From Patescibacteria group bacterium (GTDB taxonomy: Bacteria > Patescibacteriota > Microgenomatia > UBA12405), in NCBI GenBank assembly GCA_038062455.1, contig JBBTXE010000001.1, forward strand, positions 381,760 through 445,759: a stretch of 64,000 nucleotides of DNA. The letters run 5' to 3'. Every line of letters begins with the position of its first letter. The stretch's first letter is position 1. Shown in pieces: positions 4,751 to 30,886 of this stretch. Both the position numbers and the translations under genes were made by a program. The notes under the pieces are model-generated. The model did not search any database, had not been told where the DNA came from, and saw only the letters and a program-made list of their open reading frames with translations.

Positions 4751-4826
4751 GGTATCCCCAGCAGGGATCGAACCTGCGGCCTTCTCCTTAGAGGGGAGAC
4801 GCTCTATCCAACTGAGCTATGGGGAC
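4751..4826 (-). tRNA. tRNA-Arg (anticodon TCT)
   Basis: Reverse complement gives acceptor GTCCCCA/TGGGGAT, D-arm GCTCAGTTGGATAGAGC, anticodon loop CCTCTAA, and T-arm GCAGGTTCGATCCCTGC. Confidence 0.75.
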
Positions 4827-25165: not shown

Positions 25166-25195
25166 TTGACAAAGAAGGGAAGTTCAAACTACAAT
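25166..25195 (+). promoter_or_regulatory. sigma70-like promoter TTGACA-N18-TACAAT driving the radical-SAM cassette (mRNA nearly leaderless)
   Basis: Exact consensus -35 (25166-25171) and near-consensus -10 TACAAT (25190-25195). The ATG follows at 25206, ~10 nt downstream. Confidence 0.45.
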
Positions 25196-25205
25196 ACTTA
25201 ATCTA

Positions 25206-26390
25206 ATGAAATTGGAGACATATCGGATAAACGATGAAGTTTATTTAGTTGAAGGACGTCGGCGAGCAGCCGTTTATGATTTGGAGTCGGGTAGCGTATT
25301 TTCGATAAATGACAGTGCTAAAAGAATAATTCTCGAACAAAGGAAGGGTGATCAATTTTATTCTGATTTGGTTGGATGTGGCTTAGCGAATCCCGAATTA
25401 ACCCCGGACGTGTCGATGGTGGATAGTGACCAAAAACCACACTTATCTTTTTTGTGGTGCGAAGTAACCAAAAGATGTAATTTAAAGTGCGTTCATTGCT
25501 ATAACGGTGATATAAAAGAACATGATGATTTTGAACCTAACTTAGATGGATTATTTAAAAGAATCTATGAAGGTTTGAGAGTAGGGGCTGATAAGATTCA
25601 ATTTATCGGCGGTGAGCCTTTTACAATAAGTTCAATTCTTGATATGGCGGAGTTTGCAGTAAAAAGTGGTTATTCCTTTGTTGAGATATTTACAAATGCT
25701 ACAAAAATTAGCCAGAAAGATATATATCGAATAAAGGAACTGGGTTTAAATATAGCTATTTCCCTTTATTCTGATGTTGCCGAAATTCATGACAAAGTGA
25801 CCCAAGTTCCTGGTAGTTTCAGTCGGACGAGAAGGACTATGGATAAGTTAAAAGAAGCAAAAATCCCAACCCGCGTAGGGGTTGTGGTTATGAGGATTAA
25901 TCAAGACACAATTGGGGGGACTTTAGAAATGATTAAACAGTTTGGTTTTGAGGGTGGCGACAATGTAGATATTGTTAGATTGGTTGGGAGATCGTCAAAA
26001 TCATTACTGCCAAAAAGAGAAATTATTACAAAATACGGAGTGAGTTTAAAACCTTCTTTTACGACAAGTAGAGAAGAGTTTCAAAATAATCGGAAATTTA
26101 ATCCATGTTGGGGGGGGAAAGTTGCAGTTAGAGCTGATTTGGCTATTACTCCGTGCATAATGGACAAAACTTTATTAGCAGAAAGTGGTGTTCCTATGGC
26201 AGAATGTTTGGAATCAGAGAAATTAGAAAGTTTTTGGGGAATTACAAAAGATAAGATTAATGGATGCAACGGATGTGAGTATCGTTATGCTTGTGGTGAT
26301 TGCCGGGTAGTTGCTAAGGCCGAAACTGGATCTTATTATGGAAAAACATCAAGATGTTCATATAATCCAAATACAGGTCAATGGTGTTAA
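25206..26390 (+). CDS. radical SAM / SPASM-domain peptide-modifying enzyme with an N-terminal RRE (PqqD-like) region
   Basis: CNLKCVHC is the Cx3Cx2C radical-SAM cluster motif. The C-terminal Cys-rich SPASM region reads CWGGK...PC...CNGCEYRYACGDCRV...SRCSYNP. The first ~85 aa (VYLVEGRRRAAVYDLESGSVFSINDSAKRII) resemble RiPP recognition elements. Confidence 0.75.
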   Translation: MKLETYRINDEVYLVEGRRRAAVYDLESGSVFSINDSAKRIILEQRKGDQFYSDLVGCGLANPELTPDVSMVDSDQKPHLSFLWCEVTKRCNLKCVHCYNGDIKEHDDFEPNLDGLFKRIYEGLRVGADKIQFIGGEPFTISSILDMAEFAVKSGYSFVEIFTNATKISQKDIYRIKELGLNIAISLYSDVAEIHDKVTQVPGSFSRTRRTMDKLKEAKIPTRVGVVVMRINQDTIGGTLEMIKQFGFEGGDNVDIVRLVGRSSKSLLPKREIITKYGVSLKPSFTTSREEFQNNRKFNPCWGGKVAVRADLAITPCIMDKTLLAESGVPMAECLESEKLESFWGITKDKINGCNGCEYRYACGDCRVVAKAETGSYYGKTSRCSYNPNTGQWC

Positions 26391-26404
26391 TAATTTAAAT
26401 ATAT

Positions 26405-26599
26405 ATGCTAAAACAAGAAAAGAAAAAAACAGAACCTGGTGAAAAACCAGAAATAATACTGGTGAGTCCACGAGTGACTTTTGATGAAACTGGACATTCT
26501 ATGAACCCAACATGTCCTCCGGATTGTATGCCATATTGTGGGCCTTACTGTAAGCCAAATTGTAGACCGGCAACTTATTGTCGACCGGTGGGTAATTAA
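26405..26599 (+). CDS. candidate RiPP precursor peptide (64 aa): Lys/Glu-rich leader + Cys/Pro-repeat core
   Basis: MLKQEKKKTEPGEKPEIILVSPRVTFDETGHSMNPT|CPPDCMPYCGPYCKPNCRPATYCRPVGN. Five Cys sit at a regular i+4 spacing, each followed by Pro, and a sixth follows. The gene lies directly downstream of the rSAM/SPASM gene. Confidence 0.5.
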   Translation: MLKQEKKKTEPGEKPEIILVSPRVTFDETGHSMNPTCPPDCMPYCGPYCKPNCRPATYCRPVGN

Positions 26600-27382
26600 A
26601 TGATTTGGAAATATTACGGAACCATTAGAGATTTTGATCTGATAGAAAAATCTTTGAACTTAGTCTGGGACGAAAAACTAGACACTTTTTTTACCAACAA
26701 AAAACTGATCTCTGAAGTTAATGTGATTTCTTTTGACTCGGAATATTTATATTTATGGGTAAGAAATAAAAACATTTGGGAAAGAAACAAAATACCACAT
26801 AAACTAAAATTTTCAGAGTATGACCGAAAAGGTTGGAGCGCCTGGTCTGATCCTGAGGTAATCAGTTATTTGCCGCCTAGTTTGCGGTGGAATTATTCCA
26901 TTATTGGAAGTTTGCCGACTGTTTTTATAAATACACAGAAAAAAATAAAAAACAGTATTTATAATACTGAAGATAGTTTTACGGCGACAATTATCCATGA
27001 ATTTGCCCACATTTATTGTCGGAGTTACTGGGATGAATTTAGAACAAATAAGTTTAAGGTGGTTAGTTTTTTAAAAGGAAAATCTAAAATAGGTGAAATT
27101 GAGCCGCCCCCGTCGCATTTGGAGGAGGTATTCGCTTTTTGTGTTGAACATGAGGTTTCAAAGAAAATATTTCCCCGACATGCGATAAATATAGATAACA
27201 GTGATAAAAAATATCTTGAGAAAATTTTAAAACAAGAAAAAATGAGGAGTATTAAACAAGCATCAGTTTTTGCCCATGACAATGCCAATCACATTATTGC
27301 AATGGTGTTGGGAAGGAAATTAATAAAAGAATATCCAACTGATTGGGGAGAAAAAATTTTGAATTTAAAATATTGCTTTTAG
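26600..27382 (+). CDS. HExxH-motif protein (putative zinc metallopeptidase / leader peptidase candidate)
   Basis: TATIIHEFAHIY contains HEFAH. The gene start abuts the precursor stop (TAAATG). No other family assignment is possible by eye. Confidence 0.35.
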   Translation: MIWKYYGTIRDFDLIEKSLNLVWDEKLDTFFTNKKLISEVNVISFDSEYLYLWVRNKNIWERNKIPHKLKFSEYDRKGWSAWSDPEVISYLPPSLRWNYSIIGSLPTVFINTQKKIKNSIYNTEDSFTATIIHEFAHIYCRSYWDEFRTNKFKVVSFLKGKSKIGEIEPPPSHLEEVFAFCVEHEVSKKIFPRHAINIDNSDKKYLEKILKQEKMRSIKQASVFAHDNANHIIAMVLGRKLIKEYPTDWGEKILNLKYCF

Positions 27383-28606: not shown

Positions 28607-30886
28607 TTAATATTCTCTCCACCCCGATAATAATTTAGTTAATTTTCCCGGCATATTAAAAATAAAATCCGGCCGATACTTGACCGCCACTGCCGGACTG
28701 GCATTATTATCTTCCTTAACCGTATAACTCCTGTTTATCCTCACATTCTTCTCCTTCACTGAATATAAAATCCCATTTACCACTAGCTGCGTATTACTGT
28801 TTCCACCGATGTTTATCCCTCCGTCAGCCACATAAATTCCATCCAGCTGATTAACTCCGGCCTCAACCGTAATACCACCGCTGACTATCACCATCAAAAA
28901 CTTTCCCGCCGGTACTGCCACATTACTGCTGACGGTTAAACCTCCATCAACAAACACTACTCCGGTACTGCCGGCCCCGGCAATACTGGTATTGGTTACC
29001 CCTTGGCCATGATTTAGAAAATACCGGCTATATAAATACTGATAATTATAACCCTCATCCGCCACAATATTGTCGACAATCCGCCAATTATTAGGCCAGC
29101 CATATTGAGACGCATCATTCCAGCCATTGGTATTATAGTAAGTTGTCGAGGCCACGACACTATTATTTGACCCTCCGATTCCGGCATTATCTATTGTCAG
29201 AGTCGACGATGCCGTTACCGGCACTCCGCTTCTGATTCCGCTTCGCGCCTTCACTCCGCCGCCCCAAACCTGAAACCAGTTTTCCTGATCCCGGATAAAA
29301 GAAAAATCAATTCGACTGGATTCATTGGTGGAATAGGCCGATACTTTACTGCTAACGCTAAACTGACTGCTGCCGGGACAATAGGTGGTGCCAACGCCAA
29401 GATCAATCCATCGGGTAAAACGGCCGCTGCCGCTGATATCCCCATCGGGATTGGCCACATTCCCGCCATTAAAAATCGGCAAATAACTTTGACTCCAGAT
29501 CAAATCGCCGCCGCTAAAACTGGCCGGTGTCGACACATTCACCGTCACGTCATTACCCCCGGACATATTGGTAAAAATCAAAGAATTAAAATTCAGATTA
29601 CTGCCGGCCGTCACTGTAAATCCGGTATTATTGCAGGCCTGTCCCGCCGATCCGTCATAAAGTTTTCCCGACACCGGCACTAAACAATCCCACACTTTCC
29701 AGGAATAGATACTATCCACCCACCCCGAACTGGAATAGATGTCTTCAGCTAAAAATGCCAAAGGGTAAGTCGAAGCGCTATTATTCCCACTGCTAAAATC
29801 AACCGTCACACTGGCCGTCAACCCAACCCCCGCGCTGGTACCCAAACTTAGGTTATAAATATTTCCATTCCACCTCATTTGGACTGTTTGAATTTGGTCA
29901 GCTCCGTCATCGTCAGTCACCCTCGCCTCAAAACGAACCCGGCGGGGCAGGGGATCACTATAAAAAACCGGCTTGCATATTTGATTCCGATTCCCCGCGT
30001 CCCAGGACACTACCGTTCCGCTTGAGTTTTTCAAAACCACGATACTTACCGAAGGAATACTATTCAGCCTAAAATACCCCCGACTCGACCAACCACCAAT
30101 ATCTGTCCCGCAAGTGGTGTTCACCGCCCTCACCCGCCAGGAATACGCGCTTCCCATAATTAACGAACCGGTTCTGATTGATGTCGAAGTAGTTGTTCCC
30201 GTCCAGGCCACACTATTGCCGGCGTCCAATACTTGAGCCTCATAATAATCGGTCAACGCCGGCACGCTATTCCACACCAACGTCGCCGTCGTTCCCGGTG
30301 AAACCACTACCGGATTCGCTAAAGTCCCAATCGGCGACACAATTGCCGGCGCCGCCGGCGCCCCATTATCGGCATTGCTGCAATTTCCCCCACAATCCAA
30401 CGCCTGCCCGCACCTTGGGCTACAAACCACACATTCCTTGCAAGCCACAGTATTCGTCCAACTTAATACGTTGTCACACAAGGTCGAACAAGTACAACTT
30501 TCTGTAGTGCTACCGCAGTTCTGGCTGCAGGAAATAGTTGAATTTATACACACCGCATCATCGCAGGTCCAACACCCTGAAGTTGCAAAAGTATATTCCG
30601 CCCCACAAGCGAGTTGGGTACAAGTATCACTACACTTTGAAATACACCTACTAAGATGACAACAACCGCCGTTACATTCTGCCCAAAAAGCACACACAGA
30701 AGTCCCACTCTGAGTAGTGCTTATCGTTATACATTGAGAAGTCAACGGGTTCCATGTGCAAGTGACGGACGTACTTTCAAAGGGTCCACTACCATTACAC
30801 CGCAATGTGGCAAAACTCGGAATCCGAACCCAACCAAAAAGCCAAATCAGGATCAATAATATCAACCAAAAACACCGCTTAGTCAT
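28607..30886 (-). CDS. large secreted Cys-rich surface protein (signal peptide, ~40-Cys N-terminal module, beta-helix-like Gly/Asn/Ser-rich C-terminus)
   Basis: 759 aa. N-terminal signal helix. Residues ~30-170 are packed with Cys (CxxC / CC pairs). Confidence 0.4.
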   Translation of the reverse strand: MTKRCFWLILLILIWLFGWVRIPSFATLRCNGSGPFESTSVTCTWNPLTSQCITISTTQSGTSVCAFWAECNGGCCHLSRCISKCSDTCTQLACGAEYTFATSGCWTCDDAVCINSTISCSQNCGSTTESCTCSTLCDNVLSWTNTVACKECVVCSPRCGQALDCGGNCSNADNGAPAAPAIVSPIGTLANPVVVSPGTTATLVWNSVPALTDYYEAQVLDAGNSVAWTGTTTSTSIRTGSLIMGSAYSWRVRAVNTTCGTDIGGWSSRGYFRLNSIPSVSIVVLKNSSGTVVSWDAGNRNQICKPVFYSDPLPRRVRFEARVTDDDGADQIQTVQMRWNGNIYNLSLGTSAGVGLTASVTVDFSSGNNSASTYPLAFLAEDIYSSSGWVDSIYSWKVWDCLVPVSGKLYDGSAGQACNNTGFTVTAGSNLNFNSLIFTNMSGGNDVTVNVSTPASFSGGDLIWSQSYLPIFNGGNVANPDGDISGSGRFTRWIDLGVGTTYCPGSSQFSVSSKVSAYSTNESSRIDFSFIRDQENWFQVWGGGVKARSGIRSGVPVTASSTLTIDNAGIGGSNNSVVASTTYYNTNGWNDASQYGWPNNWRIVDNIVADEGYNYQYLYSRYFLNHGQGVTNTSIAGAGSTGVVFVDGGLTVSSNVAVPAGKFLMVIVSGGITVEAGVNQLDGIYVADGGINIGGNSNTQLVVNGILYSVKEKNVRINRSYTVKEDNNASPAVAVKYRPDFIFNMPGKLTKLLSGWREY

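Follow-up and report, generated by a model that had tools for sequence, protein, structure and literature searches.

What is made by three closely spaced genes that a Patescibacteria group bacterium carries between positions 25166 and 27382 of the DNA examined here? This DNA, hereafter called the window, is a stretch of 64,000 nucleotides (64 kb) from contig JBBTXE010000001.1 (assembly GCA_038062455.1, forward-strand positions 381,760 to 445,759), and the genes encode a radical SAM/SPASM enzyme, a small peptide rich in Cys-x-Pro units and a protein with an HExxH motif. An earlier reading of the sequence without database searches had proposed that they form a cassette for a peptide that is made on ribosomes and modified after translation (RiPP). 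This original prediction is borne out, as regards a RiPP-type peptide-modification cassette, by the maturase and by the conserved linkage of a precursor gene to it. The reading that we favor, with a probability of roughly 55%, is a self-contained RiPP-type peptide-maturation cassette in which Cys-centered cross-linking is guided by a leader that the HExxH protein then removes.

The evidence that carries this reading comes from the small open reading frame (ORF). When a single genome from each GTDB species was scanned by motif, 442 relatives of the maturase came to light; the precursor and partner counts given here cover the 85 loci that were read. A small ORF with at least three C-x-P units is present in at least 65 of these 85 loci, spanning several bacterial phyla and archaea. 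All but three of the 65 ORFs lie within 330 nt of the maturase gene (62 of 65), and 64 share its strand, whereas just 68 of the 6742 small ORFs of these loci carry three or more such units. Six-frame reading with no length limit revealed Cys-x-Pro ORFs in most of the remaining loci. Within the window, six-frame translation of all 64 kb gives the precursor as the sole stop-free segment with three or more C-x-P units, and the maturase as the sole long segment with a CX3CX2C motif.

In the three closest loci, which were retrieved by exact-protein look-up, a small ORF directly follows the maturase gene in each. The encoded peptides read ...EKPEIILVSP...TCAPDCLPYCRPYCRPNCAPARVCYPVAN in locus L004, ...EEPEIVLVSP...CVPNYCLPFCRITTCQPRCGIIPTCRPICRIPGPN in L001 and ...EKPEITLVSP...CAPRCLPYCRIIICRPRG... 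in L003. Relative to L004, the window precursor has residue-changing differences at 29 of its 65 codons (64 residues and a stop), and the six Cys, the six Pro at position +2 and the motif PEIILVSP are all kept; all six Cys and six +2 Pro are likewise conserved in the orthologous peptide P0274. Conservation beside maturase homologs, whose absence had been named in advance as grounds for giving up the idea, thus identifies the small ORF as a genuine precursor.

The six units of the window precursor are CPP, CMP, CGP, CKP, CRP and CRP. The repeat had been described as Cys followed by Pro or another residue, a description that has to be corrected, as the actual rule is Cys-x-Pro with Pro at +2. 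Among the 65 peptides, Pro occupies +2 after 674 of 702 Cys residues (96%), and no other position is conserved. Units are spaced from 3 to more than 10 residues apart, with the shortest spacing (C-x-P-C) occurring 53 times, and their number per core varies from 2 to more than 20. For example, CWPRQQ is repeated about nine times in the Pelosinus precursor, CFPRQ eight times in that of a Negativicutes metagenome-assembled genome (MAG; L051), and CRPCPPSQ about six to twelve times in Bacillota MAG precursors, and the Woesebacteria precursors are built from CSPD/CGPD units. In some Patescibacteria-type precursors, Asp, Asn or Glu is frequently found at +3. The cores are hypervariable in sequence and length among close relatives. 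Some Cys-x-Pro "precursors" are 130 to 250 aa long (L013 5263-5805, L049 3349-4002, L070 3255-4001, L029 3361-3891 and L033 3558-3941). L013 has a hydrophobic N-terminal segment and a C-terminal region that, by eye, resembles a peptidoglycan-binding domain, L049 and L070 carry a helical C-terminal domain, and the archaeal ones end in a coiled-coil-like tail.

Ahead of the core stands PEIILVSP, whose first seven residues (PEIILVS), 15 residues before the first Cys-x-Pro unit, match the motif P-[ETDSKR]-[IFL]-x-[LCR]-V-[ST] that precedes the first unit by 6 to 17 residues in bacterial precursors. Archaeal precursors carry the variant P-x-I-E-L-L, and those of Negativicutes the related P-E-[IM]-x-x-W. 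The window precursor matched no NCBIfam model at E <= 1, nor did five precursors from other clades at E <= 0.01, which agrees with the proposal that the core is unlike known precursor families. A protein search with the window precursor returned only itself and one relative. Gene callers seldom pick up such precursors, and their sequences diverge quickly. The maturase is 100% identical to NCBI MEK7527833.1 (from a Patescibacteria MAG), and the HExxH protein holds the consecutive accession MEK7527834.1, so the 64-aa precursor between them is unannotated. With the precursor missing from public annotation, standard pipelines may be blind to the family.

The family is not the isolated rarity of a reduced genome that had been supposed. 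It is widespread, and its 442 relatives include many Patescibacteria lineages, other phyla and archaea. Taxonomic listing of the best 80 of the 442 loci gave Patescibacteria (Woese-, Roizman-, Levy- and Amesbacteria, WWE3 and Saccharibacteria), Negativicutes (Sporomusa, Pelosinus, Anaerospora, Lucifera, Propionispora and Dendrosporobacter), other Bacillota, Chloroflexota, Latescibacterota, Krumholzibacteriota and Elusimicrobia, and the archaeal groups Bathyarchaeia, Thermoproteota and Methanosarcinales. A neighbor-joining tree of the maturase separates Negativicutes, Clostridia-like and archaeal/Latescibacterota groups, and the phylogeny largely tracks taxonomy. A mobile-element origin was also considered and was not supported, as phage and plasmid collections searched by tblastn with the maturase showed generic radical SAM similarity only, at no more than 27% identity.

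The maturase is a clear member of its superfamily. Pfam Radical_SAM matches it with E = 1.6e-17 (64.6 bits versus a cut-off of 29.5), and 182 homologs were found. In an alignment of 28 homologs (A1), C91, C95 and C98 and seven C-terminal Cys residues are invariant, which confirms the predicted CNLKCVHC cluster motif and SPASM C terminus. Pfam SPASM matches 26 of the 28 family members, but not the window protein itself (E <= 1), and TIGR04193 matches its last 110 residues through the SPASM part of that model (5.9e-18, below the cut-off). An NCBIfam scan of the maturase gave no equivalog near its cut-off, and no family-specific model passes for it or for a Sporomusa homolog; by these matches, it is a maturase subfamily without any NCBIfam or Pfam family model.

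Structural comparison places the enzyme among peptide maturases. Searching the PDB with the family profile returned SkfB first (1.6e-28), followed by CteB (2.6e-17) and anSME (2e-16); a search with the SPASM region alone gave no match. In the profile alignment, the seven SPASM Cys pair with C261, C276, C317, C320, C326, C330 and C348 of anSME, and anSME C255 has no counterpart in the family. On the basis of the anSME and CteB structures, we take this to leave auxiliary cluster I (Aux I) with three protein Cys ligands, as in CteB, where a substrate Cys occupies the fourth site of that cluster. Such a three-Cys Aux I would be a weak indicator of Cys-directed chemistry. An AlphaFold2 (AF2) model of the maturase (pLDDT 89) has SkfB, SuiB, anSME, CteB, TigE (a cyclopropylglycine synthase), EpeE (an epimerase) and also MoaA as Foldseek neighbors, with TM scores of 0.5 to 0.62 (about 0.58 to 0.62 for anSME). 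The modeled fold thus says SPASM peptide maturase without indicating which reaction.

A PqqD-like RiPP recognition element (RRE) had been proposed for the N terminus. The canonical PqqD/RRE is a winged helix of three strands and three helices; in the AF2 model, residues 5 to 57 form four strands plus two helices. Along the N-terminal domain of CteB, from chain residue 18 onward, the family profile can be aligned, with "iydlesgkvysinesakeil" set against "VVDVNSGAVHVVDDISFDIL". Some 21 additional residues follow in CteB, and longer family members carry an insertion at the same place. No Pfam PqqD match was obtained for the window maturase, and 2 of 28 homologs match with a nonsignificant E = 0.038. 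The proposal is therefore only partly supported, by the predicted strands and helices and by the CteB alignment and not by any significant PqqD match, and the domain is best called RRE-like, shortened and only partly verified.

For the HExxH protein, Pfam and NCBIfam gave only sub-threshold matches around the motif (SprT-like, 0.078; DUF4344, 0.019; WLM, 0.016), and Foldseek gave none. Its predicted fold is that of a gluzincin metallopeptidase catalytic domain, which supports its nomination as a candidate peptidase. A word-indexed search found nine relatives, and 138 clusters, of which 115 scored below 1e-10, emerged when 1.84 billion cluster representatives were searched exhaustively with a profile; by these searches, the protein belongs to a small orphan family. 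The residues invariant in its alignment (A2) include H133, E134, H137, E176, H194 and H231. Of these, E176 is the candidate third zinc ligand.

A family hidden Markov model (HMM) located this protein beside the maturase in 18 of the 85 loci, and all 18 of the accompanying maturases sit in the Patescibacteria-dominated part of the neighbor-joining tree. The HExxH gene is usually convergent with the maturase-precursor pair and is co-directional in the window and in L004. When the ORFs of 24 Patescibacteria-type loci were clustered, the sole further recurrent family was a second HExxH family of about 245 aa with an invariant HE[VYA]LH and a downstream EHxxIEL. It has no Pfam match, and it occurs in five of the seven loci from which the first family is missing, so that one or the other occupies the same place in 22 of the 24 loci. 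Homology of the two families was rejected (hhalign probability 0.2%). All loci together have 852 ORFs that reach 100 aa; only 27 of them contain HExxH, and 21 of these are the partner proteins. The replacement of one HExxH protein by a non-orthologous one in the same position speaks for zinc-peptidase activity being part of the system in the Patescibacteria clade. In two Saccharibacteria loci (L006 367-1960 and L007 3995-5588), the HExxH-family ORF is 140 aa long, apparently truncated, and starts 2 nt after the maturase gene. In neither of these loci was a Cys-x-Pro ORF found, and the cassette may have decayed there, or the precursor may be encoded elsewhere.

Gene order and linkage, the Cys-x-Pro and leader motifs, the cluster motifs and the predicted peptidase fold were computed, and from them we infer how the cassette might operate. 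It is probably transcribed from its own promoter. The 64-aa peptide would be the substrate, and the small RRE-like domain at the N terminus of the enzyme would take up its PEIILVSP motif as an additional strand. The enzyme would then act repeatedly along the six Cys-x-Pro units of the core. The favored reaction is Cys-centered and of the sactipeptide/ranthipeptide type. A substrate thiolate would bind the Aux I iron that has no protein Cys ligand, and a 5'-deoxyadenosyl radical would take a hydrogen from a nearby carbon to give an S-C cross-link (-2 Da per unit). We favor S-C cross-linking because the target would be Cys, because Aux I apparently has a free site and because the nearest functionally known sequence relatives are thioether synthases. 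The acceptor would have to be inside the three-residue unit or directly beside it, and could be Pro itself, because units can follow one another as closely as C-x-P-C, with Cys and Pro(+2) as the sole conserved residues. Such a placement would create a topology different from those of known thioethers. The abutting gluzincin-fold zinc peptidase would then remove the leader.

Several points weigh against this reading. The type of reaction is not readable from sequence. The top NCBIfam matches of the maturase (AhbD, TIGR04053 and NirJ2) score about 90 bits versus cut-offs of 395 to 500 and reflect the generic radical SAM core. Sactisynthase models perform no better (AlbA, 43 bits versus 850; StsB, 62 versus 625), and the SkfB model is not among the NCBIfam matches of the window protein, with P0058 scoring 75.6 versus 300. 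Because all sactipeptide and ranthipeptide maturase models fall far below their cut-offs, the label sactipeptide/ranthipeptide maturase in the original prediction is only partly supported. Seven-Cys SPASM domains also occur outside the thioether synthases. The N-terminal domain is shorter than a canonical RRE, with a helix missing in the window clade, and its isolated profile (A4) significantly matched neither the PDB nor the PqqD-bearing N terminus of the distant homolog P0106. Some Cys-x-Pro ORFs exceed 150 aa and have extra C-terminal domains, and the family may therefore modify proteins too and not just short peptides.

The remaining counterpoints concern biological role. Sporomusa ovata (L077 265-5514) and Pelosinus baikalensis (L065 337-6402) carry the maturase and precursor as a two-gene unit beside tig-clpP-clpX, with no HExxH partner, and in Pelosinus a gene with a CotF (spore coat F) domain follows downstream. 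The synteny in these two loci suggests vertical inheritance and possibly a physiological role in spore-forming Negativicutes, and the placement is as compatible with a physiological or structural role as with a secreted natural product. In addition, no transporter or immunity gene was found in any locus examined, including those in the ORF clustering of the 24 Patescibacteria-type loci. The modified peptide could thus be intracellular or structural (metal- or redox-active, a cofactor precursor, or associated with the envelope or spore) rather than secreted, with the HExxH protein as a processing or turnover factor. The agreement of maturase phylogeny with taxonomy and the fusion of some precursors to larger domains or coiled coils point the same way. 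However, the cores are hypervariable, as is typical of diversifying natural products, and the cassette differs from most neighbors in GC content at third codon positions (GC3) and occupies different genomic sites in relatives, both of which suggest mobility. We therefore regard this alternative, which competes on role and overlaps with the readings of the chemistry, as possible but unlikely.

With regard to chemistry, the main rival to S-C cross-linking is an anSME-like reaction, in which a hydrogen is abstracted from C-beta and Cys is oxidized, for example to formylglycine or a thioaldehyde-derived product, with Pro(+2) serving as a recognition element. Sulfatases are matured at the motif C-x-P-x-R, and the substrates of anSME and FGE share the C-x-P relation that is also the only invariant feature of the cores here. 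Units of three residues favor a modification that needs no partner residue, and anSME is among the closest solved folds, shares the SPASM architecture and shows comparable structural similarity. However, the profile match to anSME covers only the generic core and SPASM regions (63 bits) and is no better than that to CteB, and no anSME model is among the best 25 NCBIfam matches. The family lacks the eighth Cys (C255 in anSME) that completes Aux I, and Arg is enriched at +3, not at +4. Furthermore, the substrate is a small repeat peptide with a leader, and the enzyme has a leader-binding-type N-terminal domain, neither of which is found with anSME/AtsB, whose substrate is a sulfatase; no sulfatase is encoded nearby. 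We consider Cys oxidation of this kind doubtful.

A non-sulfur target is another conceivable explanation that we judge improbable. Pro or a variable residue could undergo epimerization, dehydrogenation or C-C linkage, with Cys serving for positioning, disulfides or metal binding. Pro(+2) is as conserved as Cys, and SPASM enzymes carry out many non-thioether reactions, with SuiB, TigE and EpeE being among the structural neighbors of the maturase. Nevertheless, the units have no conserved aromatic, Lys or other partner residue, and the high density of Cys is best explained if Cys is the target. Finally, it is scarcely credible that the small ORF arose by chance and that the three genes are unrelated neighbors, as missing annotation at NCBI and a single relative by protein search might imply, and this reading was rejected given the recurrence of a Cys-x-Pro ORF beside the maturase across phyla, the retention of Cys, Pro and leader motif despite the residue-changing codons, and the uniqueness of the segment in the window.

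How does the favored cassette compare with known systems? SCIFF is a six-Cys-in-forty-five peptide that is modified by a CteB-type maturase with an RRE. As in SCIFF/CteB, a radical SAM/SPASM enzyme with an RRE (here RRE-like) is paired with a short Cys-rich peptide, often as two genes only, with a broad and largely vertical spread in anaerobes and a physiological role still to be found. The profile alignment extends over the N-terminal domain of CteB, and Aux I probably has three Cys ligands in both. However, the window precursor matches no NCBIfam precursor model, among which we presume SCIFF to be included, at the threshold given above. Similarly, the sactipeptide/ranthipeptide models among the best 25 NCBIfam matches of the maturase are far below cut-off, and the SCIFF/CteB maturase model is not one of the 25. 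The core of 2 to more than 20 C-x-P units and the leader motif also differ, and the window clade adds a dedicated HExxH peptidase.

The systems PapA/PapB (freyrasin) and QhpC/QhpD involve iterative, local Cys-to-Asp/Glu thioethers. By analogy, a single radical SAM/SPASM enzyme would put small local rings, one after another, into a repeat peptide, and the CSPD/CGPD units and the frequent Asp, Asn or Glu at +3 in some Patescibacteria-type precursors recall these systems. In contrast, the motif here is C-x-P, the +3 position is variable or absent so that there is no conserved acidic acceptor, and no family-level HMM matches. In the CXXX-repeat system (TIGR04114-04116), a Cys-rich repeat peptide goes with a radical SAM/SPASM maturase plus a small accessory protein, and the system resembles the cassette in this composition and in a period of about four residues. 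However, no such model is matched by the precursor at E <= 1 or found among the best 25 matches of the maturase, and the accessory protein here is HExxH peptidase-like. Gluzincins (M1 aminopeptidases, M30 lugdulysin and M4 thermolysin) share HExxH and a downstream Glu with the partner protein, which differs from them in its low identity (about 10-15%), its single 260-aa domain and its lack of Pfam or NCBIfam membership. Moreover, the candidate Glu is 38 residues from HExxH, versus about 18 to 20 in M1 and M4 enzymes. Judged from these sequence comparisons, the system is one that works like a SCIFF/CteB- or PapB-type radical SAM RiPP pair, yet falls outside the sactipeptide/ranthipeptide, SCIFF, CXXX-repeat and anSME families.

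A more far-reaching proposal, which we offer tentatively, is that of a new RiPP class that is ancient and largely vertical and makes a SCIFF-like physiological peptide, with a modification not yet described at every three-residue unit. Candidates would be a cross-link from Cys sulfur to the Pro ring, or a six-membered ring from sulfur to the C-alpha of a neighboring residue. The system would then extend across the sampled Sporomusaceae, recur in the Candidate Phyla Radiation (CPR)/Patescibacteria and also occur in archaea. The full-text literature searched contained no account of radical SAM peptides with Cys-x-Pro repeats, with subscription papers outside the coverage of that search, and an earlier mention may exist in sequence-similarity-network surveys. 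The precursor rule, leader motif and orphan peptidases are distinct from those of known systems. The family is real, widespread and uncharacterized, with a reasonable chance of new chemistry.

If confirmed, it would add a large family to the radical SAM RiPPs. Its substrate rule is unusually simple and strict and limits the chemistry to units of three residues, so that a new modification may be involved. Patescibacteria, usually deemed poor in specialized metabolism, would gain a recurrent three-gene peptide-maturation module with an orphan zinc peptidase. Because cultured organisms (Sporomusa ovata, S. acidovorans, Pelosinus propionicus and Anaerospora hongkongensis) are among the carriers, product and role are directly testable.

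The layout of the cassette is given in Table 1. The ORFs, motifs and promoter of the original prediction are all present where it had placed them. The promoter matches consensus at 11 of 12 positions and is the best promoter-like site of the region. Because it ends only 10 nt before the maturase ATG, the mRNA would have either no leader or only a very short one. In L004, a locus that is 81% identical, the -10 box is TATAAT at an unchanged distance from the ATG. The gap of 11 nt reported between maturase and precursor holds when counted from the second of two tandem TAA codons, and is 14 nt from the first. The HExxH gene begins with an ATG that directly abuts the precursor stop codon, and all three genes are on the + strand. 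The claim of non-host codon usage finds some support, in that GC3 is 0.23-0.31 in the cassette genes and 0.41-0.49 in most neighboring genes, but rpsP and orf116 are also low (0.33).

Table 1. Coordinates of the cassette features in the window and, in the last five rows, of second-family HExxH genes within their own loci.
Feature	Position	Strand	Basis
Sigma-70-like promoter: -35 TTGACA (25166-25171), 18-nt spacer, -10 TACAAT (25190-25195)	25166-25195	+	Predicted from sequence
Radical SAM/SPASM peptide maturase, 394 aa	25206-26390	+	Pfam Radical_SAM, 182 homologs, AF2 model
N-terminal RRE-like candidate leader-binding domain, residues ~1-60	25206-25385	+	AF2 secondary structure, CteB alignment
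CX3CX2C radical SAM cluster motif CNLKCVHC (residues 91-98; C91, C95, C98)	25476-25499	+	Invariant in 28 homologs
SPASM domain (C301, C317, C354, C357, C363, C366, C384)	26058-26387	+	Invariant columns, 28 homologs
Precursor peptide, 64 aa, C-terminal end TCPPDCMPYCGPYCKPNCRPATYCRPVGN	26405-26599	+	ORF and orthologous peptides
Leader motif PEIILVSP, residues 15-22	26447-26470	+	Motif common to precursors of several phyla
Core CPPDCMPYCGPYCKPNCRPATYCRPVGN, six Cys-x-Pro units	26513-26596	+	Cys/Pro conservation in 65 candidate precursors
Orphan HExxH protein, 260 aa, candidate leader peptidase	26600-27382	+	Predicted gluzincin-fold zinc metallopeptidase
HEFAH zinc-binding/catalytic motif, residues 133-137 (H133, E134, H137)	26996-27010	+	Invariant in family alignment
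Candidate third zinc ligand E176	27125-27127	+	Invariant; ligand role inferred
Second HExxH family, locus L016	2987-3709		
Second HExxH family, locus L017	1922-2677		
Second HExxH family, locus L023	5632-6402		
Second HExxH family, locus L053	5538-6284		
Second HExxH family, locus L061	5679-6401		

The cassette is flanked, on the opposite strand, by what we take, from inspection of the translations by eye, to be pilM/N/O-like genes and a pilin-like gene. Downstream of these lies a 759-aa ORF (28607-30886, - strand) whose N-terminal third is very rich in Cys, though not of the C-x-P type. Elsewhere in the window, ARAGORN called a tRNA with anticodon CTA, labeled tRNA-Pyl (4751-4826, - strand), which is clustered with tRNA-Lys(ctt) and tRNA-Arg(tcg) and may be a suppressor or UAG-decoding tRNA in this Patescibacteria genome. 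The HExxH gene ends with TAG at the same place as its homologs, which indicates that TAG is still a stop codon there.

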